A DNA stretch of 61,971 bases, filler included, from Sphacelaria rigidula (taxonomy: Eukaryota), in assembly GCA_964200075.2 (NCBI GenBank). It is 7 parts of 7 records of this genome, joined end to end, with 100 filler letters (N's around TTAATTAATTAA, not from the genome) between each part and the next. Parts side by side here need not be neighbours in the genome. Positions count along the whole stretch, not along the records: positions 53,207 to 61,971 come from CAXNAA020010160.1; 6 more parts are not named here. One strand, given 5' to 3'. Each line of letters starts with the position of its first letter. Position 1 is the first letter of the stretch. Made by a program: the position numbers and the translations under genes. Positions 2,401-61,971 of the stretch are shown piece by piece. The notes beneath the pieces are model-generated. The model was not told the DNA's origin. It saw only the letters and a program-made list of their open reading frames with translations, and did no database searches.

Positions 2401-4989
2401 TCATCTGTCGGACGCCTCCCCTAGTTCCAACTTCACGCTCGAACCCTCCAACGCCTGTGCTGATTTCACACCAACAAACCCGCCAACAGACCCACTTACA
2501 GTCGCCGACGAAACATACAGAGGTCCTGCACTCACACCACAACTGCTGCTGCTGGAGCTACTCCGACCACCTGCACTGCTAAAACCCCACAAAGGGCCAG
2601 TATGCTTGCTACGCTCTACCATTCCAGCGTCACTGTATATAGGAGAAGGAGCTTCCGCCTCTACCTTCATTCCAGCTCCTACCCTTGGCGCGGAAGACTC
2701 CTCAAGATCAGCCACTGAGGGTGGCTGGCCCGAAAGCAACAGTGGTGTTACACCACTACGCCTGGCAATAGGGCACACACTACCTTCAACACCAACAACG
2801 TCGCTTGTACCAGAACTCCAGCATGGTGCGCGCTTGCGTTTTGTTCCTCGAACGCCAGCAGCGCTTCCTCCACCGCCATCAGTTGTGCTACCGGTGGAGG
2901 TGGCCTTGCCAGTGCTGAGCTCTCCTGTGTCGTATACCGTAGCTGCGTCATGCGCAGTAGGATACTGTCGAAACAACTTTGCCTTATCTAGGACGTCAAT
3001 CTCGAGAATCTGCGGAATTGAGCATTCCCCTTTACTAGACTTGCATCTCACCGGATCCACCTTTCCCGCCATCGCAAGCTGAGGGGAGAAATCTGCGTTC
3101 TCGATTGCGCCAGCAGCATACGACGGTCTTTTCGAGCAGCTCTCATCGCCGCACTTCTCGCTCACCAGACTCGCCATTCCTGCCCTGGCATGCTGAGGGC
3201 AAAACTCCACCTTCTTGCTTCCCACTACACCACAGGACGGCTGCCTGGAGCAGCCCTCGTCGCCGCGCGTCTTTTTCACCACATCCACCATCCCCGCCCT
3301 GGCATGCTGAGAGCAGAATTCCGCCTTTTTGCTTCCCGCCACAACATACGACAGCGTATTCAAGCAGCCCTCGTGGCCGCAGGTCCTGTTCACCACATCC
3401 ACCATTCCAGCCCTCGCATGCTGAGAGCAGTACTCCGCCATCTTGCTCCCCGCTACACCATACGACGGCTTCTTCCAGCAGCCCTGCTCGCCGCATTTCT
3501 TTGTGACCACATTCACCATTCCCACCCTGGCATGCCGAGAGCAGAACTCCGCCTTCTTGCTACCCGCTACACCGTACGACGGCGTCTTGGGGCAGCCCTT
3601 GTCGCCGCACCTCTTCTTCAACACATTCACCATTCCAGCCCTCGCATGCCGAGAGCAGAACTCTGCCTTCTTGCTTCCCGGTACACCATACGACGGCATC
3701 TTGGAGCAACTCTTATCGCCGCACTTCTTGTACACCAGATCCACCATTCCCGCCCTGGCATGCCGAGAGCAGAACTCCGCCTTACTGCTTCCCACTACAC
3801 CATACGACCGCTGCCTGGAGCAGCCCTCGTCGCCGCATTTCTTGCTCAATACATTCACCATTGCCGTACTGGCATGCTGAGAGCAGAACTCCGCCTTCTT
3901 GCTCCCCGCTACACCATACGACGGCATCTTGGAGCAACTCTTATCGCCGCACTTCTTGTACACCACATCGACCATTCCCGCTCTGGCATGCTTCAAGCAG
4001 AACTCCGCCTTACTGCTTCCCGCTACACTATACGACGGCAACTTGGAGCAGCCCTCGTCGCCGCATTTCTTGTTCAATACATTCACCATTGCCGCACTGG
4101 CATGCCGAAAGCAGAACTCTGCCTTCTTGCTCCCCGCTACACCGTACGACGGCTGCCTGGAGCAGCCCTCGTCGCCGCACCTCTTCTTCAACACGTTCAC
4201 CATTCCAGCCCTCGCATGCTGAGAGCAGAACTCTGCCATCTTGGTTCCCGCTTCACCATAGGAAGGCGACTTGGAGCAGCCCTCATCGCCACATTTCTTG
4301 CCGATCACACTCACCATTCCCGCCATGGCATGCCGAGAGCAGAATTCCGCCTTCTTGCTTCCCGCTACACCAAACGATGGGTACTTGAGGCAGCCCTCGT
4401 CGCAGCACCTCTTCTTCAACACGTTCACCATTCCAGCCCTCGCATGCTTCAAGCAGAACTCTGCCATCTTGGTTCCCGCTTCACCATACGACGGCGACTT
4501 GGAGCAGCGCTCGTCACCACATTTCTTGCTCACCAAATCCACCATTCCAGCCCTCGCATGCTGAGAGCAGAACTCCGCCTTCTTGCTCCCCGCTACGCCA
4601 TAGGACCGCCGCGTGGAACAGCCCTCGTGGTAGCACTTCGTCTGCAACACACTCACCATTCCAGTCCTCGCATGCTGAGAGCAGAACTCTGCCTTCCTGC
4701 TTCCCGCTACACCATACGACGGTTTCTTGGAACAGCCCTCGTCGCTACATTTCTTGCTCACCACATCCTCCATTCCAGCCCTGGCATGCTGAGAGCAGAA
4801 CTCTGCCTTCTTGCTTCCCGCCACACCATACGACGGCCTTTTGGAGCAGCCTTCGTCACCGCACTTCTTGCCCGACACTTTCACCATTCCCGCCCTGGCA
4901 TGCTGAAAGCAGAACTCCGCCTTGTAGCCCGGTAAAGCGTACGATGGCCATTTCAAGCAGTCTTCGTTGATGCACTCCCTTTTCCACAT
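2401..4989 (-). CDS. EsV-1-7 cysteine-rich repeat protein (~16 full + 1 degenerate C-x4-C-x16-C-x2-H repeats, low-complexity C-terminal tail with a basic NLS-like motif)
   Basis: Uninterrupted ORF with 38-aa repeats KKCGDEGCSKxPSYGVAGSKKAEFCSQHARAGMVxVV. Likely ATG at 4989 (MWKREC). An upstream polypyrimidine tract plus CAG acceptor on the minus strand (exon starts at 5081) suggests a 5' intron. The tail contains GTKRKR. Confidence 0.88.
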   Translation of the reverse strand: MWKRECINEDCLKWPSYALPGYKAEFCFQHARAGMVKVSGKKCGDEGCSKRPSYGVAGSKKAEFCSQHARAGMEDVVSKKCSDEGCSKKPSYGVAGSRKAEFCSQHARTGMVSVLQTKCYHEGCSTRRSYGVAGSKKAEFCSQHARAGMVDLVSKKCGDERCSKSPSYGEAGTKMAEFCLKHARAGMVNVLKKRCCDEGCLKYPSFGVAGSKKAEFCSRHAMAGMVSVIGKKCGDEGCSKSPSYGEAGTKMAEFCSQHARAGMVNVLKKRCGDEGCSRQPSYGVAGSKKAEFCFRHASAAMVNVLNKKCGDEGCSKLPSYSVAGSSKAEFCLKHARAGMVDVVYKKCGDKSCSKMPSYGVAGSKKAEFCSQHASTAMVNVLSKKCGDEGCSRQRSYGVVGSSKAEFCSRHARAGMVDLVYKKCGDKSCSKMPSYGVPGSKKAEFCSRHARAGMVNVLKKRCGDKGCPKTPSYGVAGSKKAEFCSRHARVGMVNVVTKKCGEQGCWKKPSYGVAGSKMAEYCSQHARAGMVDVVNRTCGHEGCLNTLSYVVAGSKKAEFCSQHARAGMVDVVKKTRGDEGCSRQPSCGVVGSKKVEFCPQHARAGMASLVSEKCGDESCSKRPSYAAGAIENADFSPQLAMAGKVDPVRCKSSKGECSIPQILEIDVLDKAKLFRQYPTAHDAATVYDTGELSTGKATSTGSTTDGGGGSAAGVRGTKRKRAPCWSSGTSDVVGVEGSVCPIARRSGVTPLLLSGQPPSVADLEESSAPRVGAGMKVEAEAPSPIYSDAGMVERSKHTGPLWGFSSAGGRSSSSSSSCGVSAGPLYVSSATVSGSVGGFVGVKSAQALEGSSVKLELGEASDR
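3110..4980 (-). repeat. Coding tandem repeat, 114-bp unit (~17 copies)
   Basis: gcagaactc...accatacgacggc...cagccctcgtcgccgca...accattcc recurs every 114 nt. Confidence 0.95.
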
Positions 4990-6828
4990 TCTGGCGATCC
5001 GCTTTGTCGCGTGGTGTCGTGATGAGAAGTAACTGTTCGCGGTAACAGAATTGGCAGAACGCCGGAGGCTGCAACTGTCAACTGCAGGGGGAAAAGCGAC
5101 GAAAAAAAACACTATCGTCTCACATTAACGGGAAGAGAAGGAGCTACCTGCACCTCCTAAAATGACACTTTACATTAACTGATCGTCATGACTACAGCCC
5201 CGGTGCCCGGGGTAATTCGAGCGAATGGGACTTCCTCACCAGTATGGTAGTACGGATCTGAACTACATAAAGCATCGATATGGTACAAGAGGGTAACGAA
5301 AGCAGACAACCTTGAAGGTATGATCCCAAGTCGTGATTCACCGGGCATGATACATGCAGTGTTACAGAATTCAAGGCTTGTAAAACATTCGCCAACGTTT
5401 TGGACAGTTGCTCTACACTGGCAGTGTACCCGACAACGTTGTGGGAGATCAGTTATACCAACGAAGTCAGGAAAAATCGATCTGAACTCGAAGATACCGG
5501 ACAAGGTTCCGAACTACTGGCTTGGTTTGATCCTGTTTCATTTCACTGCTAGAAATACGACTAAGATAGGGATGTATTTTTGTTCTCAACAGTGGTGCAC
5601 GCGACCGTCGAAAGAAAATTATATCGAAAGCGAATCTGGTCTGTGCACACGCGCGAAAAAGTGTACATATCTGTCGAATCGCAATACACGCGCACATGTG
5701 CTCCCATGATCTCTTCTGTCATATCGGATACGGTCGGAACCAACTGTAATGTATTGTCCTAGTCCCCACTTCAACCACAAGAGAGTGTATATGTTGGGTT
5801 ACCTGATGTTTGCTGAAGTCACTTAAACCTCGGAATTTTCGGCTCGTATCGCGTCTACATGGTGTGCATGGTAGTACATGCTTGTTGTCGGCAGGGTCAG
5901 GGTGTCATGTTAGGAAAGCGCTGGAAGTTGAGCGGGGCGTGAAACTGTCGCTGGCCACAACGAGGCTTCCAGAAAAGTGCTTTGCACATCTGTTGAATGA
6001 GGATATCACGACTGTACAAGATTGGTGCGAACATACTAGATGTCAACATGGCCATAATCGTCGTGGTGAAGATCTATTCCTTTACAGCCCTTGTGAAAAA
6101 TGGCAAACGCCCAGTGAGGGTGAGATATTCGAAACGCACCGACATCTGATCAAATCTTGGGGAAACGTCTTCTAGACTATCAGAATGTCACCATTGTCGG
6201 ACGTACCTCTTAGCCTGATGAGGTGTCAACCCGCCCGTGTCGGACACACATTCTATGGTAAACATGTACCATTCCACCTGCATCCAACACATGCGTTCTA
6301 GAATGAACACGCATTTTACGTATACCACGCAAATAAATGCTACATGAACGGGTATGCTACGTTAGTTCGACACAAACATCTTGGAGGGAACAGGCATTGT
6401 ACATATGTGCGGCACATGCGCTCTCAAGTGAGGAGATGTTTTATGTTGTGTTTTGCCCAACTCGTGGTGTACTGCGGCGGTCGTGGTTCGAGATCAACTG
6501 TGAATGTCTCGTGCAAGTTGACGAAGGAAGTGCCTAAACGGATGGAGAAGGCCGCGCTTCGTCTGCGTTTACAGTGACATCTGATTCCATGCCATATTTA
6601 TGTGACATGTTGCACTTGTCTCCTCCATAATCTTACGAGCTGGTCCAGCTGACAGTGGTTTTTGAAAGTATCCTGGCGATGCGGTTGGTTTTTCGAAGAA
6701 TTAGGCGCTGAAATTTTGACACAAAATTTCACTAGTCGGACGAGTAATTACTCCTCGAAACGAGTGCACTCGTGGATGTTTTTTGAAAACATAACGAGCA
6801 TCGTGTGCTCGAGTCATTACTTTTGTTC

Positions 6829-43289: not shown

Positions 43290-44240
43290 GGACGGAAAAT
43301 GCGGGCTCACCGAGGAGCAGTGTAAATACCGCCACGTCGAAGGTTTGGTCCAGACAGAGGGGGCCCGTCGTTCGGCACCAGCGAGGGCCGGAGCCAGTAA
43401 TAGTGGACGAGGGGACGGTACTCAGGATCGTGATGCACAGGCGGGTAGGGGTGCGGGAACGACGAGCCAAACTTCCGCGGCACGTACGTCCCCCGGAGGT
43501 CGGGGTACCGCCCGTGGAGGAGGACCAACGGCAGCGACCGGTGGGAATGCACCGCCGACATCTGGATAGGGGTGCGGGCTCCACCGAGGATCGATGGGGC
43601 CAACGGTGTCGGATGCGGGGCGCCGCGTTACGGATAGACGTCGAGAGGGCTTGAGGGAGCTAGCTCGAGACGCGTTGGCGCAAGCAGACCACACTATTGG
43701 CGAACGCGAGCCGCTTGTGCCAGGATCATTGGGGATGCAAAACTCTGGTGTGTGTTGTTCGAATACTATCCCATTGCCAGACGACTATTCCGCGGATAAC
43801 GCAGTTTCGGCTGAGATTCTTGACTTGATTGCACAATGGAAGCACCAAGTTGGTTGATTGCAGGGATGATCGGTATGGTTTAAAACAATTGCGAGTGATA
43901 GCACGTATGGGGTCTGAACTCTTAGCAATAACGGGGTGAAATATTGGTGATTCGGCGAATATCACTGGGTTTTCGCAACTTGCACCGCATAGAGGGAGGA
44001 GTACCAATTAAGGTACAGAGCCAATTAAGATACAAGTGTTTTTAATCGTTCATATCTCCGTGAAACATTAACCGTTTTCCGTTCTGTTTTTTTCTGCGTG
44101 TGCACAAGAGCACGGCGCTTTGTTTGAGCTATTGTATGTGTCTCAAGCATCCGATTACGTAGTCTTACATCACTGCGAGTAAGCGCGTATGTGTCATCCT
44201 CCAAAATCAGCTTTTTGGTCGATCGGCTGCTAAGCATGCA

Positions 44241-44340
44241 NNNNNNNNNNNNNNNNNNNNNNNNNNNNNNNNNNNNNNNNNNNNTTAATTAATTAANNNN
44301 NNNNNNNNNNNNNNNNNNNNNNNNNNNNNNNNNNNNNNNN
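44241..44340. other. Artificial 100-nt contig spacer
   Basis: N44-TTAATTAATTAA-N44. Confidence 0.98.
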
Positions 44341-44359
44341 CCCCCCCCGCTATCGTAGG

Positions 44360-47300
44360 ATGACTCCTGATTTGAACTTGACCACATCGGATCATGTAAT
44401 TCTCAATCAGTTGGATCGAGCTCCTTCCCCGCGATTTTCAACACGCACGGACCTACCTTCGGCCGGTTCTAATAGCAACCGCCCCAACATATTTTTGGCT
44501 ATGACCCAACAGCCAAGCTTGCCTACGGAAAGCAGCCCACAACTTTCGCTCCATCATGCCCCGATGCTGACCCCATCCACGCAACTGGACGCAGTTGTGG
44601 TTTCATCCCAAAATGTTTTGGAAGTTCCCCGACCTTTGTCACGGCGAAAGAGAAAGCCCCGTAAGCATGCCCCCCAAGGACGCGCGCGCATCATTACGTA
44701 CACCTCTTTCAAGCGGAAATCCTCGACCTCAATCTCTCCAAAATGCGACGACTTTGAGTTCGACGGCTCTATTAAGTATCCCGGAAGAAACAAAATCAAC
44801 TAATTCTGACGGCACTACTTCATCAATCGACGACTACAGCCCCGCACATTCTGGATCCCCCTTGGACGGTGATCTCTGTCAACCAAGGACGATCATTTAC
44901 GAAATCGCCAATGGTCACTCTGATCGTGCCACACCTGGAGACAATATACCGTCCACCCCCTTCTCTGGTGAGACATCTGACCCAACGGCGGATCACCTGC
45001 CGTGCGTTTTTGCTGTCAGCCCCGCTGATCCTGACCAGTTTACCTTGCCGGAACACGGTCCGGATCTTGTCGGCGGTAAAGTGTCTGTAGATCCGGCCAC
45101 TTTTACTACTCGCGTTGCGATCCATTCCGGTCCAAACGCTACCACGCCTACGAAATGCGTATCCTTCTTGGACAGCAGCAGCCCGCGAACATTTACTCGA
45201 GAATCAACATGGAAACACATGAAACAAACTGGCACTGCTACTGCAGCTTGCGAAACCACCACCAAACCTCGCGTGTGGGGCGGTTTCGGTGATTCTGCCG
45301 CACCACTGACGACACGTAAATCCGTACGTCTCAGTGTACAATTTTTCCACAAAACCACTCGATCTGCCAGCCTGGCAGTCTGGGCATACATTGTCCCCGA
45401 CAGCACAATGTATCACGCCATATTATTGGGCAGAGATAGCTGTATGCGGTTTAATAAACGCACCTACCGCACACGCGTCCACCACTAACGCCACATTCCA
45501 AGCCTTGTGGAGAATTCAACCTCGAGCACTTCGGTACTCTCCACGGCGCCCTGGCCTACCAGAAGAATCCTCAAGCAACCGGGGCTGCTTACCACCTACG
45601 ATACAACGGTAGCGTTGGTATTACACTCTCCGACGACCCCCAACTTTTAGAAGTTGCACTAGTTCGCCGAAATGGCATGCCAGCACTTATGGACCATTAT
45701 CTTGCCGAAATTGTTACCCCGTATTGGCGCACCAGCCGACACAGAACATTTTTGTGTCGGCGGGACAACAACTCCTCCCTCTTACGGGTCATGCTAACTT
45801 GGAACCCGGCGATGGTTTTAGGAATCGCCGCTGCTCCCCTGATGCACATCCCACTCGAGACGTGCGAAACAGAGCCTGCCGCGCCAAACGCCACATATAC
45901 GGCGGAGTCAGTCCATTGTCTCGATGAACCCTATTTCGACCTCGCCTCCGCGACTCCACCCCAGGTCCAGACCGTGGATCCTGCCCAGTCAAATTCCGAT
46001 CCTCCTGCTGAGGTGCTTCAACGCTCATCACCAGATTCTCGGAATAGTTTATCGCACATGTGGAACCAACTGCCGCCACACATGCGCGACATCAATTTTG
46101 ACCTTTATGGGCCCGGCTGGGAACCGGCAGTCATCCGAGAACTCAGTGATGTTCTGCTATAGTACCAAGACCGATTTTCCAGATCCAAGACGGATCTTGG
46201 GCATTGCAAAAGACTACCCTTTGAGGTTACCCTTCAACCCGGCGTCTCACCGATTTCTTCTCCGCCATACCGCACAAACCCAATCCTTACCGAAAAAGTT
46301 AACTCCATCTTGGATGCGTATTTGCGAGCGGGATTAATACAACATTCCTCCTCCCCTTGGGCCTCGCCCCTTGTGGTCGTCCCCCAAAAGGATGGAAACA
46401 TACGCATAACCGTGAATTATCAACGGTTGAAACGCGTCACTGTAGTCGGCATACTTCCGATTCCCCGCATTGATGAAGTCTTCGACTCCTTGGGCGAGGG
46501 CAAAGTATTCAGCACCTTCGACCCTGACACAGTCCCACTGACGGCTTCTTGTACCTCGTCCGGACTCTATGAGTGACTTCGGGTGCCACAAGGCGCCGCC
46601 ACTGCCCCGGGATGCTTCCAACGCTTAATGCAATGAGTCACCGTGGGCCTCGAGTACATCATCATGTACCTGGATGACGCCATCGCTTTCGATGCCTCAC
46701 CCATTGCACATATCTGCACTCTACGAGAATTTCTCTCTCGCCTACGCACGCACGATTTGAAACTGTCTCCATCCAAAGCTCGCCTTGGTGCGACTGACTT
46801 GGATTTTGGGGGGAATTCCATTTCGCCATCAGGCCTGCATCTGGATACAAACAAAGCCAAGGCCATGACTGATTTGCCGATGCCAACTAACATTTCTCAA
46901 CTTCACTTATTGTTGAGCGGGCTATCCCACTACCGCAAAATTTTGCCGCACTTACCTAAACGGATTCGCCCCCTTACTGAGTTACTCAAGGAAGGAGCTG
47001 TGGTTTCCTTCACAACCGAAATGGAGAATATGACCCGCGAAATACTCAAGACGCTTACCGAGAAGCCGGTACTCTGCTTTCCTGATTGGGAGGCAGTACA
47101 AGATGGCTCCCGCCTTTTCCAACCCCACACTGACGCCAGCACAAACGGATTTGGAGGAGTTTTGAATCAATCTTAGCTTGATGTCTCCGTCCGACCCATC
47201 CTCTATATCAGCCGCGCTATCGTGCCCAACGAGCCCGCTAGAACTGGAAGGCGGAGTAATCACTTGGACCATCAAGCGCCTTCGACAATACCTGTTTCAC

Positions 47301-50270
47301 GTGCCCTTTGAGATCTACACGGATCACGGAGCACTCTAACAACTCGCCAAGGTTGGCGACCACAACCCGCGTGTACAACGATGGTTGGAGTTTCGAACAG
47401 CATAGCAGTATACCATTAAGTACCGTCCAGGAAAAACCAACGGAAACGCTGATCTTCTTTCTCGCCTACCTCTGTCGCCTACGGCCGCAGATTGCAGCTT
47501 GGCTTGCCGTTGAACGGAACCCGACAAACCTGGAATTCACGCGATTAGACGATTTTCAACGCCCGTTTACGCCCTCGACCTCCAGTGCCCGGAAACTGGT
47601 ATGCATATGGGAGGACCTCGCCTTCTACCATATGACGCCGTCTTCGATGGGTTAAAGCCCCCCACTTTCGATTTGTCGATTTCCGCACTTTCGTTACTCG
47701 CGCGAAACTCTTCGCGAAGACACCTCCAGTCACCCACCTTGTCTCCGACAACATGCGCTCCCGGTCTGCCGCCCGCACAACACCGTGTGCCCCGCCGCCA
47801 CGGATAACACCTGCAACCCCTACGAGCTACCCAGCACAACTTCAACGGACCAACACGCAACGCTCCGCGACAACTTCTGCACCGTGCACCACGCGCCGCG
47901 GACAATCTTCGCCGCGCACTAATACAGCCCCGCCGCCCACCACGGCGCCGCCAACATTTACCGCTCCCGAGCACGGCACTGACGACTTAGCTCCGGCCTC
48001 CGGGACAGATATTGACGTCGGCATTCCTGCCCCGTCGCCTATTCCCCCGCCGCCTGCCCCGCCATGTTTGGTTGGCTCGCCAGCGGAAGGTTAACTACGC
48101 GAGTTTCTCGCCAGCTACTCCCACCGTGATTGGGCTCGCGAACAAAACGCAGAACCGATATGTCGCGCAGCCATCTGGTACTTACAACTCGACTGTCCAG
48201 TCCCTTTTCCATCCACACTTCTGGCCCCGGTTGGCACACTGCCACCACCAGTTATTTCTGACGTATACGAGCTCGTGCGTAAAGGCACCCTTTTTACTAC
48301 GGATGAAGATGTGCAACAACTCGTGCGTCGGCCCACGTTTTTGACAGGCGCAATTGCCGCCTCAACCACGGGACGCACCGCATGACTACTCAATGACGAA
48401 CCAACGCGCATATATGTGCCATTATTAATGCGCCCCTGGGTCATGAAAGGCTGCCACACAGACTTGTCATGTCACCTTGGCGTCATCCGCACTCTCGCGC
48501 TCTTCGAACGCTTCTACTGGTGGGTTCGCATGGAAATTTCAACCCGCTTCTGGATTCGGCGATGCTTCCAATGCCAAGCTCGAAAATATTCACGACAGAC
48601 AGTACGCTGGCCCGTCATCTCTATGAAACTCCCCAACGAGCCCAGCCACTTTGTTGTGTCCTTTGATTACTTTGGCGTTCTACCGACCACAGGTCGCGGC
48701 AACACCTACATCTTACTCTTCACTGACCGCTTCAGCCGCCACGCGTCCATGTACGCGGTAACCGCCGCGGATTTCACTGCCGGCGGAACGGCCGACATAC
48801 TGGTTCACGATTACATCAAGCATTACGGTTGCCCAAAGCGACTACTTTCAGACAATGGTCAGTAATTTTGCTCAGATTTCTCTGATGAGATTTACAAGCT
48901 CCTGGGCATCCGCAAAATTGCCACGAGCGCCTACCACCCGAACGGTAATGGTGGTACCGAAAGAGTGAATCACACCATGGCCCAGATGCTCTCTATGGTT
49001 GTCAATGACCGCCAAAATGACTGGGACTTACATCTCTCGCACATCATGTTGTCCTACAACAACTCGGTTGATGCCGCCACAGGCCTTTCTCCGAACGAAC
49101 TTCATCTTGGACGTTACCCTCGGCTGCCTATCACCGTGTTTGAGCGACACACGTTCGACGGCCACCAAGGATTGAATCAGGATCAGATATCCTACCACGA
49201 GCTAGCGCACGCGCGACAACGCAAAGCGTTTACCCTCGTGCGCGAACAACACGCTACCAACGCCTCGCGCCTAGAGATATCTAACACTGCTCTCTACAAC
49301 CTCATGCACAAATGCCCTGACTGGAAAGTTGGTAATTGGGTTTGGATCTACAATAGTTTGTCGACCATCCGCCAAGGCACCTGCAAGGCAGCCAACGAAA
49401 CAATTTTGAAGACAAAACTGTGCCTCAATTGGACAGGACCATTCAAGATCCTGACAGTCGGACCTCGTCATCATCACCGGATGAAAAACCCGTTGGTGAC
49501 AAACTGCTCTATCTCAACTTGCCTCGTGACTTCCAGGGCAAGAACACCAAACCCCACGTCTCCGTGCATAGATGTAAACCCTGCACGGACCCGCATGATA
49601 CAAGTGACATGCCCAAGTACCTGCCTGCCGGACTCACACAGTATGTTCTCAATAGCTACTCGACCAAGTCCCCGTCCTACCACGTTACAACCGACGACGT
49701 GACGGAACAGCCCCTTCGATTGAAAGTGTCCTCCAGCTCCGACTACCAGATAACCCGTGGCTGAGGAGGCAAAATCGCTGTCATGTATAAGACACACTGG
49801 CACGGTTCTTGGAGAGCGTCTTGGGAACGCGAATCCGACCTGCAATCGCACCGCCGTGCAATCCTCCTTTACTGGACGCGATCCCAACATCAGCATCTTG
49901 CTCACAACGAGAAATATCGCAACATGCGCCGTGGCGCAGCAGCCCGCAAACTTCACCGCAATCAGGGACTACGCTTCGTCGCAGATGGTTACAAACTTGT
50001 ACCCACCAAGACTTGTAAGACGAAGTTCTTCGCGAACCAGCGACTCACGCCCAAGGGCAGCTACCTTTGGTTCAAAGGCAGCGACAACCTCTGGTAGTTG
50101 GGTCAGACCCACTCCGATAACCTGGTTTCCGCCGACACATACATCGCGCGCTTCATCGATGACCCTGAACCCATACAGCTCAAGCTTCGGCCAGCACTTT
50201 ACACCACCAGCCCATCTGCGCCACGCGGATCCTGGTGCCTCTAGCGCCTCAAGTCGAAAGGACTTTGCCG
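44360..50270 (+). mobile_element. Degenerate Ty3/Gypsy LTR retrotransposon pol (PR-RT-RNaseH-IN-chromo-like), with many stops and frameshifts
   Basis: Protease: FLDSSS...ILLGRD. RT: SPWASPLVVV, PIPRIDE, YLDD. RNase H: HTDAS..GFGGVL. Integrase: H...HLG, CFQCQ, DRFS, SDNG, NGGTERVN, WTGPF. Chromo-like: YKTHWHG...SWERESDL. The domain order RT-RH-IN is Ty3/Gypsy. Confidence 0.95.
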
Positions 50271-53206: not shown

Positions 53207-55013
53207 CAGGCAGAAGAAATCGTGAATTTGGTGATTTTGAGTCGTGATGATTTGTCCTAACCGTGGATTTTTCGCCAACTTCGGTTCTTACTTTTCCATT
53301 CTCTTTTTTTGTTACGACCTAGTCTGCTATGTCGTTCTGTTCGACTTTTTTTTTCTGTTCCTTTTTTTCTTCGGAGCGTGTTTCAGTTTCGTTTTTCTTG
53401 GGTACGTCTATCCTGAGACCACGGCTGGACCCCTGGGGGGTCAGTTGAAGTGCGACAATCAATCAATCAATCAAATCGCTCCGCAACAACGCACAACATG
53501 GAACTTCTGTCGCCGTGAGCTGCATCTTGCTAGTGCAGCATTGCAGACCCACACTACACCGCAAGCGAGCGCTAAACGACGTATGTGGTAGATCAATACG
53601 CGGGGCAATGACCTGGGGCAGCGTTCAGTGCTCTGCTGATATCGTGATAAAATTCAAAATGGGCTCCATTCTCTTTTGCTTTTCCACCTGTTACCCTGGA
53701 AAATTGAATGCGAAAGTCGAAGTTGGGAACAACCGGTAGAACACGTGAACTGCGGTGCTCACAGCGCTGGCTGTTCGGCTGCGCATGATCTGCGCAAACT
53801 CGTTGAGGGCCTATGCACATGGCTCATGTTCTGCGACGTGATGTTAGTAGTACAGTATAGGCAGGGCGGCGCAGTCACTGAAGACAGTACAGAACGTGTG
53901 CACAGTAAAGTCAGTACAGCCACGAATCCACGAGTAAAACCGTGTTCACCCACCCCCCCCCCCTCCAACGCCCCCCCCACCCCCTTCTCCACCCCNNNNN
54001 NNNNNACAAGAACAACAGAGTTGCACGACAACACCCCCCACACCCCCCAAACCCGTAAAAACCACGCTTCCCCCCCCCCCCCCCCCCCCCCCCAACTGGT
54101 TTTGAACGCACATGCCACACGGCGAGACAACCGTCAGTGACGCTCATCTTGGAGGAATGGTAGAAACAGCACATTGCACCCGCGCCAATATTTCGGCCAG
54201 CATTACAGTGCGTCGAACGGAATCAGTACAACGTTTCATACGGGAAAACGAGGACATCTAGAAGTCTTTCCAGAATCTGTGCAAGGGGTATTTTTTCCCC
54301 TTTTTTCTCCGGATTGCAACACAGGTGTGTTGTGAACATCTGTCCAACTTGCTTCGTCTCCGATGTATCATGTCTACTATTCAGCCGCGCTCCGGCAGGG
54401 TAGCGGTGCAACTGACACCGTAAAGAACGCGGGTTTGATTCCCGTCGGATGCGTCTGGGGTTTTTCTTAATTCTGATTTCCCTCCTTGAAAGCGTGAGTG
54501 CATGGATAGCGGAAAGAGTTGACTGAGTTTGCTTGACGTCAGTCGACACGGTGCGGGAAAGCTAATCCAATGACCAAAATGCGAAGCGTGTTCCGGGGAA
54601 GAGATGAATGAGTGGGTGAATCCTTTGAGGCCAAGGGCTCGTCCCGAGGAGGGGTGTACTCATGATCATGCATGCCATAGTCATCAGACTATTGACCTCG
54701 CATCCCTACAAAGCCAGGACGGAGCACGCCGGGTTTTCGCCGGACCAGGCTCCCGAGGAGGGGGAGGGGGGGGGAGGGGTGAGAGTATGATGAAAAATAA
54801 CTGTGAGCCACATCTCTACCAAAAAATATTTACCATACAGTTCGAGTGTATGCTAGAGCGATATCCTTGCAGGAACCCCTTGGTCCGAAGCATCACCGTT
54901 TCGCCGTATGGTTCAACAAACAAGATCGGTAGTCTAAAACTTGTTTTCACGATAAGCCAAATCTGACCTGGACTGATCTTCACGACTGTGTCTCGCTGTC
55001 ATGTCTTTTCCAG

Positions 55014-55139
55014 GGCAAGTACGCTGAGGCTGAGTCACTCTACGAGCGGTGCCAGGCGATCGAGGAGAAGATTCTTGGCCCGGAGCACCCAAGCTTTGCC
55101 GAAGCGATGGAAAGCCGCGCGGTGTTGTTGAGAGCTCAG
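55014..55139 (+). CDS. TPR array exon 1 (42-aa TPR, probably part of an NB-ARC-TPR-type gene)
   Basis: cag|...|gtga, 126 nt, phase 0. GKYAEAESLYERCQAIEEKILGPEHPSFAEAMESRAVLLRAQ. Confidence 0.92.
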
Positions 55140-55242
55140 GTGAGAGCAAATGGAATATCCTCGTTGTCCGGTGACGGCGTTTAGAAGACATCGTGCGGTG
55201 TTGATTTTGTCCGCTGGTCCTGTTGGCCAACGTTATAGCTGA

Positions 55243-55365
55243 GGTCAGTGCGGCGAAGCCAGCCTGTTGTACCTTTGAGCGGTCGAGATCGGCCATAGTA
55301 CCGTCGGCCCTGTACACATGGTGCTCGCCGGCTGCACACCTAGGCGGGGCGGCGGCGCGAGCTTT
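55243..55365 (+). pseudogene. Intronic decayed TPR pseudo-exon (counterparts in the other introns of the array)
   Basis: Translates GQCGEASLLYL*AVEIGHSTVGPVHMVLA, in register with GKYAEAESLYERCQAIEEKILGPEHPSFA. A frameshift follows and splice sites are lacking. Confidence 0.75.
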
Positions 55366-55431
55366 TCACCACCGTTGTGGGCCCGACGTCAACTGTTATA
55401 CGCTGCTTTTGCGTCGTATACTACATTTCAG

Positions 55432-55557
55432 GGCAAGTACGCCGAGGCCAAGCCACTCTTCGAGCGGTGCCAGGCAATACAGGAGAAAGTTCTTGGCCCG
55501 AATCATCCTGATTTGGCCGTGACGATGGGCAGCCGTGCGCGGTTGTTGCAATCTCAG
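55432..55557 (+). CDS. TPR array exon 2
   Basis: cag|...|gtga, 126 nt. GKYAEAKPLFERCQAIQEKVLGPNHPDLAVTMGSRARLLQSQ. Confidence 0.92.
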
Positions 55558-55614
55558 GTGAGAGCCTACATGCCCTCCTCGTAGTCGTGTGTCGACTCGT
55601 GAACGACATCGTGT

Positions 55615-57880
55615 TGGGGCTGTGGACTGGCAGCTCTGGGCAGGAAAGTTTATACTGGCCGCGTCATGTTTTTCGATTTCACCCGGGAAGCGCCAGTGAT
55701 ACAGGCAAAGAAAAGCACCAATGAAATATAGAATTGGTCAAGTTGAAGCGAATGATAAAAACCTACTCTCAATCAGCGCTCTACTCTCAACATTACGGAA
55801 ACATTGTTGAATGCAGACAGTTGTACAAATTTTGACCCCTCACATTGAGGAGCTGAGATCGACTCTAATGGGAGCCGTTCAGGTTTTATTCCAAAATGTT
55901 TGAACGAGTGGTCACAAAGACACTTGATATGGAACAAAATCGCCAAGATTTAGACCCCCAAAAGTTTGAACGGACCAAGAAAATACTAAATTCCGGCCAA
56001 GCGCTCAGAATCAGGAGACGATTCAAAGCGTTTGAGGGCCTGTTGAAAAATTGGCACAAAAAGTATAATGACACTTGTAATATTTTTTTGTACTACATCA
56101 CACACCGGTGGCTCCTTCATGTGCTGCACCTTTCACTGCACAGTCGTGAGTTTAGACCTTGCCAAAACTGTGTGGTCTCTGCTGGGATTACCAGAGCAGC
56201 TGTACTGCTATTACATTCCGAACAACTGCGGTCGGCAGACGGTGCTGTCTTGTCGAAGTTGAAAATACTCTACAGCATTTGTTTGTTGGATATCGTGTCC
56301 TTCGCAAAGAACAAGGTCCTTGATGCGCAGACCCAGCGTTACTGTCCTGTAGCTGACAGGTAGTGCGGTGCCCTGCAAATACGGTTTGATCTGCGCTGAG
56401 GATTGCATGAAGTGCCGTACTGTTGTTGTGTCGCGGTCGGTACACAAGTCTAGACACTGCGAAAGCGCCACCATCATGGCGTATTGGATGCGTTGGGCCG
56501 TTTATAAAACCAATCAATGACGCAATAATTCATGCCCACGTTACTTATTGTTATGCTGCAGTTGTTGTTCTGACTGTAGTGCGTTTAAATCCTTCGAATA
56601 CGGTTTGATCTTCGCTGGAGATTGTCCGAGATGCTGAACTGCCGCTGGTCCGGTCTGTACAGATGGGTGGGAACGAAACCCTGTTCGCATGAAGTTGAAA
56701 ACGTTACGTTATGGGTGTACAGCTGCCATGTCTTCTACAGGTGCTGTTGTACAAGTGCACAACGCCTAGGTCACGCCAATTTCATCATCTATGTGCAACT
56801 CCAGCGTCATGCCGTAATAGTGTTTTTTTTTTGTCCCAGTTCAGAATCGTGGCAGAAAACAAACTCGTTTGAAATGTAAAACAAACAAACGTTTGAACGG
56901 CTCCCATGAGAGTTGGCCTAAGAGGCTTCAAAAACATTAAAATCCCATTCAAAGCAATGAGCGACTCGACAATCATTCATCTGTAGCATGCAGCCGCAGA
57001 GACTCTTCTGGAGGAGTGGAGGGTGGGAACATGGAAGCCAAGACTCGCAGCACGTGGGGATAAAAGCGCAAAGTTATTGACGTCCGGGCAGACAAACACG
57101 CATGCCGTTGAATAGCAAGCCATGGTGTATTTTGTATTTTGTGGTCGTGGGTTACCGTTTTTTATTTGTGTCGGCTGTCGTGCAATGAAACGACAATAAG
57201 TGTGCCCGCTCTATCACTTCAAGGTGTAGTGAGCATGTGCTGCGTCATGTTCAACGTTCATCATGCACTTAGCGTTTGAGATTCGGCAGTTCCGCATCAA
57301 GCGCCCCGCCGTATATAAGTAACTCACAACTCCTTTTTCTTTCTACAGCTTAGTTTTCTTTCTTCATTTTCGACCTACACGCTACAGCCGAAAAAGCGGA
57401 AAACTGCAGAACCACGAGGGACCAACGAAGCAACCGGGACAGAAACACCTGAAGTAGTCAAGTAGTGATCGGCATAGGGCAAACCCGTTCTGAATGTGCT
57501 ACGGAACTACAACAGGATGTCAGACCTATACTGTACAAGTCGACCGAACCGCGGAAGACGTAGTATAAAGCTGTGCACCGCTGCTTCACGCGTCATCGAC
57601 GCAAGCAATTTCTGTCAACGCCTTCGAAGCGCCCTCCGTCTTAACTGATACCCCCACATTCCTCTGCAATTGTAAAGTGCAGGCCTCAGTTGTACAGTCA
57701 CATCGTATATAACTGTTTCATAAGCTTTGTCATAAACTCACTATACTAAAATTAATATACATATTGCCGGTAACGGTAAACCTCGAATAAACTGGATAAA
57801 CTGGCACCCTCGTCGCCAGTTCCAGTTTAACTCCAGTTCTGGTCCAATCGACAGTATAAACGGTCCGGTTCACAGCCCTA
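55615..57880. mobile_element. Non-autonomous hAT-like element in TPR intron 2
   Basis: TIRs tggggctgtggactgg / ccggttcacagcccta and an 8-bp TSD CATCGTGT/CATCCTGT. The paralogous intron 6 lacks the insertion. Confidence 0.75.
55857..56918. mobile_element. Nested PIF/Harbinger-like non-autonomous element
   Basis: TIRs gatcgactctaatgggagccgttca / tgaacggctcccatgagagttggcc and a 3-bp TSD TGA/TAA. The empty site gaggagcTAAgaggctt is visible at ~12478-12494. Confidence 0.7.
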
Positions 57881-58121
57881 CATCCTGTGGTGTTGGTGAT
57901 GCTCGCTTGTCCTCTGGATCAACGTTGCCTGAGAGGGTGCGGCTAGGTCAACCCGTTATACCTCTGTGCTGTCGACATCGAATACACTGCTCCTGATCCT
58001 GTGCACACCGCAATCGCCGGCTGCACACCTGGGCGGGGCGGTGGCGCGAGCGTCTCCCCACCGTTGTAGGTCCGACGTTGGCCCTCATTGGCTTGCCTCT
58101 GCGTCGTGTACTACATGTCAG

Positions 58122-58247
58122 GGCAAGTACAACGAGGCTGAGCGACTCTACGAGCGATGCCAAGCGATCGAGGAGAAGGCTCTCGGCCCGGAGCACCCAA
58201 GCTTCGCCACAACGCTTCACAACCGTGCGGGTTTGTTTCAAGATCAG
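58122..58247 (+). CDS. TPR array exon 3
   Basis: cag|...|gtga, 126 nt. GKYNEAERLYERCQAIEEKALGPEHPSFATTLHNRAGLFQDQ. Confidence 0.92.
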
Positions 58248-58569
58248 GTGAGAGCCGATGGAGCTTTGTAGTGGTAGTGTCTCGACGTGTGAATGAATTT
58301 ATGTTGTGTTGATGTTGGTCACTGATCCTGTCGGCCGACGTAGACTGAGAGGATGCGGCAATGCCAGACCGTCGTACCTCTGCGCCATCGGTATCGGGCA
58401 TATTACCCTCGGCCCTTCAGATGTAGCGCTCATCGGCTGCACACCAGGGGGGGGGCGGTAGCGCAGCGTCTCCCCGAAGTTGTAGGTCCGAAGTTGACTG
58501 TTATGGGTTGCTTCTACTTCGTTGCCTGCGCTTTGACTGTTGGCCTACGGCACACTGTGCTATATTCAG

Positions 58570-58695
58570 GGCAAGTACGACGAGGCCGAGACACTCTACG
58601 AGCGGTGCCAAGTGATCAGGGAGAAGATTCTCGGCCCGGATCATCTAGTATTCGCCGCCACGCTTCACCGCCGTGGGACGTTGTTGCAAGCCCGG
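58570..58695 (+). CDS. TPR array exon 4
   Basis: cag|...|gtga, 126 nt. GKYDEAETLYERCQVIREKILGPDHLVFAATLHRRGTLLQAR. Confidence 0.9.
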
Positions 58696-58981
58696 GTGAG
58701 AGCCGGTATAACATTGTCGTAGTCGTTTGCTGATGCGTGGACGAGATTGCGAGGGGTTGACGTTGTTCGCTGGCCCTGGGGGGGCAACGTTGACTGACAG
58801 GATTACTGCTGCGAGGCCAATTCGGTGTACGTCTGAGTCATGGTTACCGGGTACAGCACAGACCTTGTACACACATCGCTCGCCGGCCTCACACGTGGGC
58901 GGGGGAGTGGCGCGAGCGTCTTGTCGCCGTTGCAGGCGCGACGTTAACTATTATAGACTTCTTCTGCGTCGCGTACTACAT

Positions 58982-60705
58982 TGCACGGTCCGCACGAATT
59001 ATACCGTAATTCGGCTGATATTCAGCATTCGTACGAATCAACGATACGATTCGTACACAAGTTGTGATTCGTACGTGATTTCGGTTCGCGATTCGCGCAA
59101 CATCACTTGGATTGTACACATCCCCAGTTCGTGATTTGTGCGGTACACTGACGAATGTTCATGTTCCATACGTTCCATTCGTATCGGATAAATCGTAGGT
59201 ACATGTTCTCCACCTTCCGCTCTCGTAAGAGCGAATCAAGCGTACATGTTTCGCGCCTTCTGTTCGCATAACACAATCATGAGAGCACGTTGTTTCCCAT
59301 CCGGTATTTCATGGGGCGCGACTCTCCGGTGGCATGGCCGTTTTACAGGTGGGGTATGCAAGTAGGACCGTACAGGTGGCCAACCCCTCGAACTCTAAAT
59401 CCGCAATAACCCAAAATTCAAATATTGTACTGAAATGTTACACATGAAATATAGTACAGCACACGCGTTTGCGTGCCCACAGCGGTTCTTCTCGCCAGGC
59501 ATTTTCCCGAGCTATGCTATTAGCAGCATTTTTTATTTCATTTGTAGTTTCAGGATGTGTTGCGTGGTACAGTTGAGCTGAATGTACTGTATCTAATACC
59601 GCAGACACTTTCTGAAAAAACATCAGCACGGGTCGTCCTCGTATGTTCGCGGGACGTTTTGGGAAACCTCCGGCGGCGTACACGGCAGTCCGTAGAGAGT
59701 GCGGTATAAGATAGCACACCATGCATCTGCGCGCCTAGAGCGATTCGTCTAGCTTATTTTTTTCCCGGGCAATTGCTGTCGACGACCCTCCTGCGGTTTC
59801 ATGTTTTGTTCTGCGGTATAGTTGGCCTGGCTATATAAAACAGTACAAAGACATCTGCAGACAGCATCAGCACTGCAAGAGTCGTTCCTGGATGTTCGCG
59901 TGAGTTTTCGGAAACACTCCGGCAGCACTGCAATCAGTGGGCAGTACAGTACAGTACAGCACAGCATAGTGTTGTGCAATCTGTACACCGGACAACAGGC
60001 AACAGTAGTACGAAGCCTTCACAATAATCCGGCATGATACATTCCGTATTTCTCCCCTTGATTATGCAGCATCAATCACGTCATTCATGTACATGTTTTC
60101 CGCCTTGCTCTCGTTCAGCATGAACCATGGGTGCATGTTCCCCACCTTTCATTAACACGAGGTGAATCAAGCGTACATACTTTCAATTTTCATGCACCCA
60201 GCACAAGTCATAAGTGCATGTTCCTTATCTTCCATTCATACGAGGTGAATCAAGCGTACATGTTTTCCAATTTCCATTCGTACAGCATGAGTCATACGCA
60301 CATGTTCTCCGCCTTCCATCCATACGAGGTGAATCAAGCGTACATGTTTTCCAATTTCCATTCGTACAGCATGAGTCATACGCACATCTTCTCCGCCTTC
60401 CATCATACGAGGTGAATCAAGCGTACATGTTTTCCAATTTCCATTCATGGAGCATGAGCCATACGTACATGTTCCCCAATCAATTATTCATACAGAAAGT
60501 GTGATTGGTACATATTTTCCACCTCTTGATTCGTGTGACACTACTGGGGATGTACACATTCCCAGTTCGTGATTCGTGCAATATGGCCTTGAACGTACAA
60601 CTTTACTGTCCGTGATTGATACCGGATGACTCTTTGATACATGTTGTGCATTCAACATTCATGAGGAGTCAATCCGCATGAGCTCTGATTATTCCGAACC
60701 GTGCA
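58982..60705. mobile_element. 1.7-kb non-autonomous TIR element inserted just upstream of the exon-5 splice acceptor
   Basis: ACAT|tgcacggtccgca...tccgaaccgtgca|ACATgcag. It interrupts the conserved gcgtcg.gtactacat..cag acceptor motif and carries many gattcgt/acgaatc subterminal motifs. Confidence 0.75.
60150..60480. repeat. ~84-bp tandem repeat (~3-4 copies) inside the 1.7-kb element
   Basis: acgaggtgaatcaagcgtacatgttttccaatttccattcgtacagcatgagtcatacgcacat... is repeated. Confidence 0.9.
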
Positions 60706-60713
60706 ACATGCAG

Positions 60714-60839
60714 GGCAAGTACGCCGAGGCCGAGTCATACTACGAGCGGTCCCACGCGATAAACGAGAAGCTTCTTGGTACGGAGCACCCAGCGGTGGCG
60801 GCAACGCTGGGAAGCCGTGCGGAGTTGTTTCGGGCTCAG
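60714..60839 (+). CDS. TPR array exon 5
   Basis: cag|...|gtga, 126 nt. GKYAEAESYYERSHAINEKLLGTEHPAVAATLGSRAELFRAQ. Confidence 0.88.
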
Positions 60840-61102
60840 GTGAGAGGCGGTGGAACTTCCTCGTACTGCCAGATGTCGGCGTGCGACGGACGTGGTGCGG
60901 CGTTGATATCGTTCGCTGGTCCTGTGGGCCAATGTTGAGTTTGGGTCAGTGCGGCGAAGCCCGCCCGTTGTGCCTCTGGTCGAGATCGGGCATAGTATCC
61001 TCGACCCTGAACCCATGGCGCTCAACGACTGCACACCTGGGCGGGGTGGCGGTGCGAGCTTAACTGTTGTGCGCTGCTTCTGCGTCGTGTACTACATTGC
61101 AG

Positions 61103-61228
61103 GGTAAGTACGCTGAGGCTGCGGCACTGTACGAGCGGTGCCAGGCGATGCAGGAGAAGCTCCTCGGCCCGGATCATCCTGAGTTGGCCGTAGTGATGGG
61201 GAGCCATGCGTGGTTGTTGCAAGCTCAG
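61103..61228 (+). CDS. TPR array exon 6
   Basis: cag|...|gtaa, 126 nt. GKYAEAAALYERCQAMQEKLLGPDHPELAVVMGSHAWLLQAQ. Confidence 0.92.
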
Positions 61229-61497
61229 GTAAGAACCGATGTGCCTTCCTCGTAGTCGTGTGTCGACTTGTGAACAACACATTGTGATGTTGGTGTTGCT
61301 CGCTGGCCCCGAGGGCCAACGTTGACTGAAAGGCTGCGGCTAGGTCAACCCGTGATACCTCTGTGCTGTCGATATCGAATACACTACTCTTGACCCTGTG
61401 CACACCGCAATCGCCGGCTGCACACCTGGGCGGGGCGGTGGTTGTTGGTCCGACGTTGACCCTTATGCGCTGATTTGCGACGTGTACTACATGTCAG

Positions 61498-61623
61498 GGC
61501 AAGTACAACGAGGCCGAGCGACTCTACGAGCGATGCCAAGCGATCGAGGAGAAGGCTCTCGGCCCGGAGCACCCAAGCTTCGCCACAACGCTTCACGACC
61601 GTGCGAGTTTGTGTCATGTTCAG
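61498..61623 (+). CDS. TPR array exon 7
   Basis: cag|...|gtga, 126 nt. GKYNEAERLYERCQAIEEKALGPEHPSFATTLHDRASLCHVQ. Confidence 0.92.
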
Positions 61624-61945
61624 GTGAGAGCCGATGGAGCTTTGTAGTGGTAGTGTCTCGACGTGTGAATGAATTTATGTTGTGTTGATGTTGGTCACTG
61701 ATCCTGTCGGCCGACGCAGACTGAGAGGATGCGGCAATGCCAGACCGTCGTACCTCTGCGCCATCGGTATCGGGCATATTACCCTCGGCCCTTCAGATGT
61801 AGCGCTCATCGGCTGCACACCAGGGGGGGGGCGGTAGCGCAGCATCTCCCCGAAGTTGTAGGTCCGAAGTTGACTGTTATGGGTTGCTTCTACTTCGTTG
61901 CCTGCGCTTTGACTGTTGGCCTACGGCACACTGTGCTATATTCAG

Positions 61946-61971
61946 GGCAAGTACGACGAGGCCGAGACACT
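61946..61971 (+). CDS. TPR array exon 8 (truncated by the window end)
   Basis: ttcag|ggc aag tac gac gag gcc gag aca (GKYDEAET), identical to the start of exon 4. Confidence 0.85.

Follow-up and report, generated by a model that had tools for sequence, protein, structure and literature searches.

Which gene do the repeat exons of identical length found at one brown-algal locus belong to, and how have they come to differ from each other? The locus lies at positions 55014-61971 of a 61,971-nt stretch of DNA from Sphacelaria rigidula (assembly GCA_964200075.2), referred to as a whole as the window. A first-pass annotation of this DNA had described a cassette array of tetratricopeptide repeat (TPR) exons, and had read it as the sensor domain of an NB-ARC-TPR-type gene able to diversify by recombination or combinatorial splicing. 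Our analysis indicates that the region is probably the repeat (sensor-type) domain of a brown-algal gene with the architecture of the NB-ARC-TPR candidate receptors of Ectocarpus. Whether an NB-ARC module sits upstream of the array in the same gene is, in our judgement, an evenly balanced matter.

We scanned both strands of the window for an exon pattern consisting of an acceptor AG, the motif GGNAARTAY followed by 117 nt, and a donor GY. The pattern occurred exactly seven times, on the plus strand only, giving seven complete TPR exons (Table 1). All seven are 126 nt long, free of stop codons, in phase 0 at both borders and flanked by AG and GT, with GTGAGA as donor in six of them and GTAAGA in one. 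At least eight exons of equal length had been counted at first pass: seven are verified at 126 nt, and the eighth is cut at 27 nt by the end of the window, its opening 26 nt being identical to the start of exon 4. Since the exons are symmetric, in phase 0 and 126 nt long, it follows arithmetically that any of them can be skipped, duplicated or swapped without a frameshift, as had been pointed out. The introns can be aligned over their entire length, and an intron profile recovers all seven, so that both the canonical splice borders and the homology of the introns are borne out. Five introns measure 263-322 nt; introns 2 and 4 are long, and each is accounted for by an insertion, which puts the ancestral unit of exon plus intron at about 390-450 nt. 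Exon 6 begins with GGTAAGT (61103-61109), that is, with a perfect donor-like GTAAGT one base inside the exon and directly behind the acceptor; we saw no sign of its use in exon 6.

The exons encode kinesin-light-chain-type TPR units of 42 residues each. The Pfam family TPR_12 matches all seven (E 1.4e-09 to 9.3e-07); six reach its gathering score of 30.1 bits (30.7-38.5 bits) and exon 1 scores 29.4 bits. TPR_10 also matches all seven. When a profile of the seven exons was compared with known structures, its positions 1-42 aligned one unit to one unit with the TPRs of kinesin light chain (E 2.7e-32), the KLC1 and KLC2 structures being matched at E 1e-29 to 3e-32. The consensus exon peptide is GKYxEAExLYERCQAIxEKxLGPEHPxFAxTLxSRAxLLQAQ, with 14 invariant columns. 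On the kinesin light chain alignment, the exon runs from a GKY turn through a helix ending in ..EK.LG and a loop G.(D/E)HP into the next helix (A..L....L...Q). Given the usual layout of TPR structures, each exon presumably starts in one repeat, with its helix B, and goes on into helix A of the following repeat, hence one repeat per exon in a register shifted by half a repeat.

The two halves of the exon differ in how much they vary, as the first-pass annotation had noticed. Across the seven exons, residues 1-21 have a mean column entropy of 0.58 bits, compared with 1.06 bits in residues 22-42, and position 37 holds a different residue in each exon. In codons 1-27 the pooled pairwise Nei-Gojobori ratio of nonsynonymous to synonymous change (dN/dS) amounts to 0.39, and in codons 28-42 to 1.20; these values come from 21 non-independent pairs and are descriptive only.

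The closest relatives of the array are brown-algal proteins. Among the best 120 matches of a profile search of proteins, 28 were named brown-algal (Scytosiphon, Ectocarpus, Sphacelaria, Choristocarpus) or eukprot entries, and the other 92 were mostly metagenomic or bacterial TPR and CHAT-TPR proteins. The best matches were brown-algal NB-ARC-TPR proteins. NB-ARC (PF00931) is present in 14 of the 28 algal or eukprot entries, two of which also carry TIR and two ankyrin repeats. The best identity of each exon to database proteins is 67-81%, nearly equal for the algal classes with and without NB-ARC; with identities no higher than this, the array represents a locus, and probably a species, other than those named in the database.

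The architecture is that described in Ectocarpus by Zambounis et al. 2012 (PMC3341825), who report 13 NB-ARC loci with a TPR domain made of 42-residue exons (124 exons of 126 nt) and give the search signature GKYxEA[E/D]PL[Y/F]...AxxLxNxAxLLxxQ. Exon length, unit length and the GKYxEA signature all match here, in agreement with the class assigned at first pass. Scored by eye over the seven exons, GKY, E5, A6, [Y/F]10, A29 and L38 are kept in all, L9, A36 and Q42 in six, and E7 in five; L32 and L39 are weaker (four of seven each). The motif keeps its frame, but P8 and N34 are mostly replaced (kept in one of seven each). The same source finds inactivated TPR exons confined to the coding strand, reports shuffling of exons as well as diversifying selection, and raises the hypothesis of somatic recombination (PMC3341825). 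The Sphacelaria locus is alike in having one 126-nt, 42-residue exon per TPR unit that starts with GKYxEA and ends with Q, in having decayed TPR exons on the coding strand only (one here, on the plus strand at 54858-54915), and in showing signs of unit shuffling and of amino-acid diversification. It is unlike the Ectocarpus genes in that the NB-ARC exon is not in the window.

Comparison of the units with each other shows how the array was built. A block of four units was duplicated, units 1-4 pairing with units 5-8: intron identity is 80% for units 1 and 5, 87% for units 2 and 6 and 99% for units 3 and 7, against 59-70% for other pairs, and the pairing is completed by the starts of exons 4 and 8. 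Identity between the two block copies jumps at about position 58105, 17 nt upstream of exons 3 and 7. Upstream of this step (57886-58104) the copies differ by 26 substitutions and two indels; downstream (58105-58595) they show 8 differences in 491 nt. The step is the footprint of a later crossover or conversion over the older duplication, and amounts to germ-line shuffling of exon units as meant by Zambounis et al. This mosaic identity supports past recombination among units, and with it the diversification by recombination proposed at first pass.

Within the youngest pair, change is concentrated at the end of the exon. Exons 3 and 7 differ by five nonsynonymous and one synonymous changes, and introns 3 and 7 by two in 321 aligned nt. 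The nonsynonymous changes (N/D, G/S, F/C, Q/H and D/V) all fall in the last 27 nt, or nine codons, and the sole synonymous one sits in the exon head. Exon tail and intron of this pair differ in divergence (Fisher, p = 0.0004); that five of eight differences lie within 27 of 491 nt has a binomial probability of 2.4e-05, for an interval picked post hoc. Pooled over the three unit pairs, rates are 0.178 for the tail, 0.132 for the head and 0.106 for the intron. The exon tail thus seems, over few sites, to diverge faster than the intron, which agrees with the published diversifying selection.

Assembled reads allowed us to look for splicing. Contigs of runs X1, X3, X5 and X6 were compared over 54006-61971; X1-X4 are DNA, and X5 and X6 are guessed to be RNA, none of the runs being recorded as such. 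Contigs of X5 and X6 contain a joint of 55139 to 55432 that skips 292 nt, exactly intron 1 with its GT..AG, and those of X6 a joint of 58247 to 58570 that skips 322 nt, exactly intron 3, again GT..AG. In the X6 contig the tail of exon 3 is joined to exon 4 with zero differing letters. The exon 1-2 and 3-4 joints are absent from the contigs of DNA runs X1 and X3, and the intronic bins 58262-58527, 58794-59059, 59060-59325 and 59326-59591 have depth 0 in X5 and X6. Provided that the guess about X5 and X6 is right, the exons are expressed, and the junctions that can be read show conventional splicing at the expected borders.

The unambiguous joints connect adjacent exons only (1-2 and 3-4). Contig 19 of X5 runs through exons 1 and 2 into an exon-7-type exon with one differing letter, and then into the head of exon 4 or 8. 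We did not count it as the skipping of four cassettes: the first 99 nt of exons 3 and 7 are common except for one base, and a de Bruijn path through these near-identical heads suffices. A further X5 contig carries a pair of exon-2-like heads at a distance of 126 nt, of which the first shows differing letters; a paralogue or exons beyond the window are the presumed source. At their 5' end, the exon-1 pieces (X5 record 19, X6 record 23) have three differing letters that could not be placed. The bin of exon 5 has almost no cover in X5 and X6, which we do not take as evidence of skipping, and joints in X1 and X3 were not accepted as rearrangements, those listed having sides of at most 26 nt inside repeats. 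Contigs drop rare variants, so somatic rearrangement is beyond their reach.

Several observations weigh against our reading of the array or are weak points in its support. The remaining 14 of the 28 algal or eukprot matches have the same units without NB-ARC. When 17 whole homologues were compared with the window by tblastn, there were no matches beyond the array at E 1e-3. The 14 pre-TPR parts of NB-ARC homologues gave 53 matches at E up to 10, the best at 0.022, and for the 13 taken from homologues that lack NB-ARC the lowest E was 0.12. The 54 kb upstream encode none of the N-terminal domains of these 27 algal or eukprot homologues, be it NB-ARC, TIR or another. Pfam searches of 20 open frames chosen by size or position likewise returned no relevant N-terminal domain, their only matches being the EsV-1-7 frame and the weak reverse-transcriptase remnants described below. 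The older unit pairs (1/5 and 2/6) have exon and intron divergences that do not differ (p 0.79 and 0.23), and the dN/dS figures derive from seven short, non-independent sequences. That the variable half corresponds to helix A and to the binding groove is read from the kinesin light chain alignment and from general TPR structure, and variability is not significantly concentrated on one helix face (helix A moment 0.25, reached in 1250 of 10,000 shuffles; helix B 0.05). That X5 and X6 are RNA is a guess. Finally, the flank is decayed, with a TPR relic, a high-copy repeat, a 10-N gap and a retroelement, and the array could be detached from its 5' part. The claim that no NB-ARC exon is visible is confirmed over the window by tblastn and Pfam, and that of a sensor domain of an NB-ARC-TPR-type gene is borne out for the repeat class and the best matches, the linkage to NB-ARC being conjectural. 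The 5' end of the gene is outside view, there being a 10-N gap 1 kb upstream and the window ending inside the gene; its 5' part is either hidden by the assembly gap or lost by real disruption.

Two other explanations share this missing 5' part. The array could sit in a brown-algal TPR gene without NB-ARC, using the same cassette mechanism and not being an NLR-type receptor; genes of this kind either carry another N-terminal region, about 340 residues long, or consist of little more than repeats. This is possible, if somewhat doubtful. Most of the 14 matches lacking PF00931 have their first unit at about residue 340, the best identities per exon are about equal between the classes (81% and 81% for exon 3, for example), and 'other repetitive TPR loci' are listed among candidates for phase-0 exon shuffling (PMC3341825). 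However, the window does not encode the N-terminal regions of these proteins either (best E 0.12), five of the 14 bear the label 'partial', split gene models being frequent at loci of this sort, and an NB-ARC protein (P0003) is best or tied-best for all seven exons. We find it unlikely that the array is a detached 3' fragment, either a dying gene or a silent reservoir of TPR cassettes, severed by transposon insertions and rearrangement from its promoter and N-terminal module. The degenerate, out-of-phase TPR exon upstream, the high-copy element of about 100 nt, the assembly gap and the decayed retroelement at 44-50 kb would fit such a fragment, as would the kilobase insertions in two introns and the lack of an N-terminal domain in 54 kb, and repeat-only loci have been suggested as shuffling reservoirs for leucine-rich repeats (LRR) (Teng et al. 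2024, PMC11378527). Against this, all seven complete exons are open with intact and uniform splice sites, spliced exon 1-2 and 3-4 contigs occur in two runs, and purifying constraint acts on the N-half of the exons (dN/dS 0.39, codons 1-27); the 10-N gap also means that the true upstream neighbour may just be missing from the assembly.

A further explanation concerns how the array varies, and would have it diversify actively within the individual, through combinatorial splicing or through somatic recombination or hypermutation aimed at the helix-A codons. We regard this as improbable. The symmetric phase-0 exons with near-identical donors and acceptors would permit it, the five nonsynonymous changes between exons 3 and 7 are clustered in eight codons of an otherwise ~99% identical duplicate, and blocks within the introns match the best exon blocks in conservation. 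Teng et al. 2023, going by its title and by citations of it, also reportedly claims that NB-ARC-TPR genes are alternatively spliced. The hypothesis itself was raised by Zambounis et al. (PMC3341825). The order of exons in contig 19 of X5 would suit it too, but a de Bruijn contig can run from exon 2 into the shared head of exons 3 and 7 and on into the exon 7 tail without any such transcript. No joint that removes a whole unit is among those listed for X1 and X3, fixed differences between two genomic copies are germ-line by definition, and, according to Teng et al. 2024 (PMC11378527), no somatic recombinant loci have been reported. It would be a long shot to read the contig joining exon 2 to an exon-7-type exon as a real four-cassette skip and to combine it with targeted diversification of helix A; just as remote is the mechanism that this would take, namely conversion over a short tract or hypermutation confined to the site, for which the conserved intron blocks might act as guides.

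We thus favour the repeat domain of a gene built like the Ectocarpus NB-ARC-TPR candidates, diversified mainly in the germ line. The array grew as whole units of exon plus intron, about 390-450 nt each, were duplicated in tandem, after which a four-unit block was duplicated, leaving units 1-4 matching units 5-8. Later recombination or conversion rendered the copies almost identical from units 3 and 7 onward, starting about 17 nt upstream of the exon, and two elements bounded by inverted repeats entered introns 2 and 4, leaving the splice sites unharmed. The encoded protein is expected to form a TPR superhelix, in which the conserved first half of the exon (helix B and the LGPxHP loop) would keep the fold and the variable last ~15 residues (helix A of the next repeat) would carry binding specificity. 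Diversity would then arise through duplication of units, unequal crossing-over or conversion, and selection for amino-acid change.

Table 1. Exons, introns and related features of the TPR array, in positions of the window.
Feature	Positions	Strand	Remarks and basis
TPR relic, degenerate exon	54858-54915	+	nhmmer E 0.0015, profile positions 43-97; protein profile E 0.047
TPR exon 1	55014-55139	+	pattern scan, Pfam; joined to exon 2 in X5 and X6 contigs
Intron 1	55140-55431	+	292 nt; intron profile; spliced out exactly with GT..AG in X5 and X6
TPR exon 2	55432-55557	+	pattern scan, Pfam, contig joint
Intron 2	55558-58121	+	2564 nt; homologous intron split by insertion; profile, inverted repeats
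TPR exon 3	58122-58247	+	near-duplicate of exon 7; pattern scan, Pfam; joint to exon 4 in X6 contig
Intron 3	58248-58569	+	322 nt; 99% identical to intron 7; spliced out exactly with GT..AG in X6
TPR exon 4	58570-58695	+	last residue R instead of Q; pattern scan, Pfam, contig joint
Intron 4	58696-60713	+	2018 nt; whole homologous intron (58696-58985) plus insertion; profile, inverted repeats
TPR exon 5	60714-60839	+	pattern scan, Pfam
Intron 5	60840-61102	+	263 nt; alignment, profile
TPR exon 6	61103-61228	+	donor GTAAGA; pattern scan, Pfam
Intron 6	61229-61497	+	269 nt; alignment, profile
TPR exon 7	61498-61623	+	near-duplicate of exon 3; pattern scan, Pfam; in X5 contig 19
Intron 7	61624-61944	+	321 nt; alignment, profile
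TPR exon 8	61945-61971	+	first 27 nt only, behind TTCAG; window ends inside exon
Intron block GGCTGCACACCTGGGCGGGG, seven copies	55330-55349, 58019-58038, 58435-58454, 58885-58904, 61027-61046, 61416-61435, 61811-61830

The two long introns carry different insertions. In intron 2, the intron profile matches only 55558-55618 and 57880-58120, and the ~2.26 kb between them (about 55617-57878) are an insertion with imperfect terminal inverted repeats of about 25-40 nt. In DNA run X1, most bins of this insertion exceed the word depth of ~27 that single-copy pieces have, so it is repeated in the genome. The insertion of intron 4 (58982-60705, 1.72 kb) lies at the extreme 3' end of the intron and leaves the acceptor AG intact. 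It has 19-nt terminal inverted repeats, ACAT on each flank and an internal tandem array of 42/84 nt (60134-60478), and looks like a non-autonomous DNA transposon.

Conserved blocks within the introns include GGCTGCACACCTGGG and TTGTTGGTCCGACGT, the latter with a mean pairwise identity of 0.84. The 20-nt block GGCTGCACACCTGGGCGGGG is present in all seven introns at three mismatches or fewer (seven occurrences, with 0.01 expected from shuffles), and pairwise identity among its copies averages 0.87, the same as in the best exon blocks. These blocks could be a splicing signal, a recombination signal or plain recent common descent. The 28 exact matches of an intron 20-mer in metagenome contigs were put down to chance, exon or intron homology being found at none of the 28 loci. 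Rfam gave no matches at E up to 0.1 on 54006-61971.

Upstream of the array, the TPR relic lies about 100 nt from exon 1 and is out of phase, and the only nearby GT would leave a split codon. Exon DNA and protein profiles detected no TPR relic on the minus strand or within introns. At 54651-54752 lies an element of about 100 nt, a short interspersed repeat of very high copy number. Its word depth sums to between 2e5 and 1.7e6 in each of the four runs, the presumed-RNA ones included, and contigs break to the left and right of it, continuing into many different flanks. A run of 10 N at 53996-54005, 1 kb upstream of exon 1, was taken as an assembly gap. The plus strand of 44000-50000 is C-rich, with a GC skew of about -0.2, and holds weak reverse-transcriptase/RNase H remnants at 46637-47176; the stretch is probably a retroelement in decay that separates the array from what lies farther upstream. 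Farther away, six pairs of 44-nt N runs recur every ~8868 nt within 8770-53206 and were taken as masking. The frame behind the best N-terminal match mentioned above (E 0.022), which recurs at 596-739 on the minus strand, has no Pfam match at E up to 1, and we consider that match a chance one. Also on the minus strand, 2401-5124 contains an open frame of 907 residues that consists nearly entirely of EsV-1-7 cysteine-rich motifs (Pfam E 1.2e-243, 16 stretches). The EsV-1-7 family is found in phaeoviruses as well. Its expansion in brown algae has been described (bioRxiv 10.1101/2024.02.19.579948), and the frame supports the window being of brown-algal origin.

Outside the NB-ARC-TPR genes, three known systems resemble the array in part. 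The LRR arrays of brown-algal ROCO genes also have one repeat per short symmetric exon, undergo exon shuffling and are proposed immune receptors, and alternative splicing is reported for them (PMC11378527). They differ in their 72-nt exons and phase-2 introns, in contrast to the 126-nt phase-0 TPR exons here, and in that LRR relics are described as frequent on the non-coding strand, whereas we found no minus-strand TPR relic. The TPR domain of kinesin light chain (3NF1, 3ZFW, 7AI4), which according to the titles of the PDB entries binds cargo peptides, shares a 42-residue unit that aligns end to end. Unlike our array, it belongs to an animal motor adaptor with six fixed repeats, no one-repeat-per-exon array and no sign of diversification. 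Fungal NLRs with near-identical TPR, ANK or WD repeats (Podospora; PMC13449251) are alike in having repeats reshuffled by recombination, hypervariable positions and kinesin-light-chain-like TPR in the sensor domain; 4Y6C was matched by the exon profile at E 6.5e-11. Their repeats, however, lie inside one exon, and diversity is described as arising by repeat recombination without introns (PMC13449251).

Brown algae are an independent multicellular lineage, in which the NB-ARC-TPR and ROCO cassette genes are the main candidates for pathogen receptors. Both the family architecture and the exon-shuffling idea are already published (PMC3341825), as is, for the family, each further element of the first-pass interpretation, and the locus is a further example of that gene type, which alone leaves existing knowledge unchanged. 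If contig 19 of X5 did reflect a four-cassette skip combined with targeted diversification of helix A, a single locus would yield many different surfaces for binding, a speculation that Zambounis et al. put forward for brown algae. The Sphacelaria array is a clean and compact example of the type, with a unit of ~400 nt, a four-unit duplication, a recent conversion boundary shortly upstream of an exon and an exon tail that diverged faster than its intron, and it could serve as an amplicon-sized test bed for telling germ-line from somatic or splicing-based diversification.

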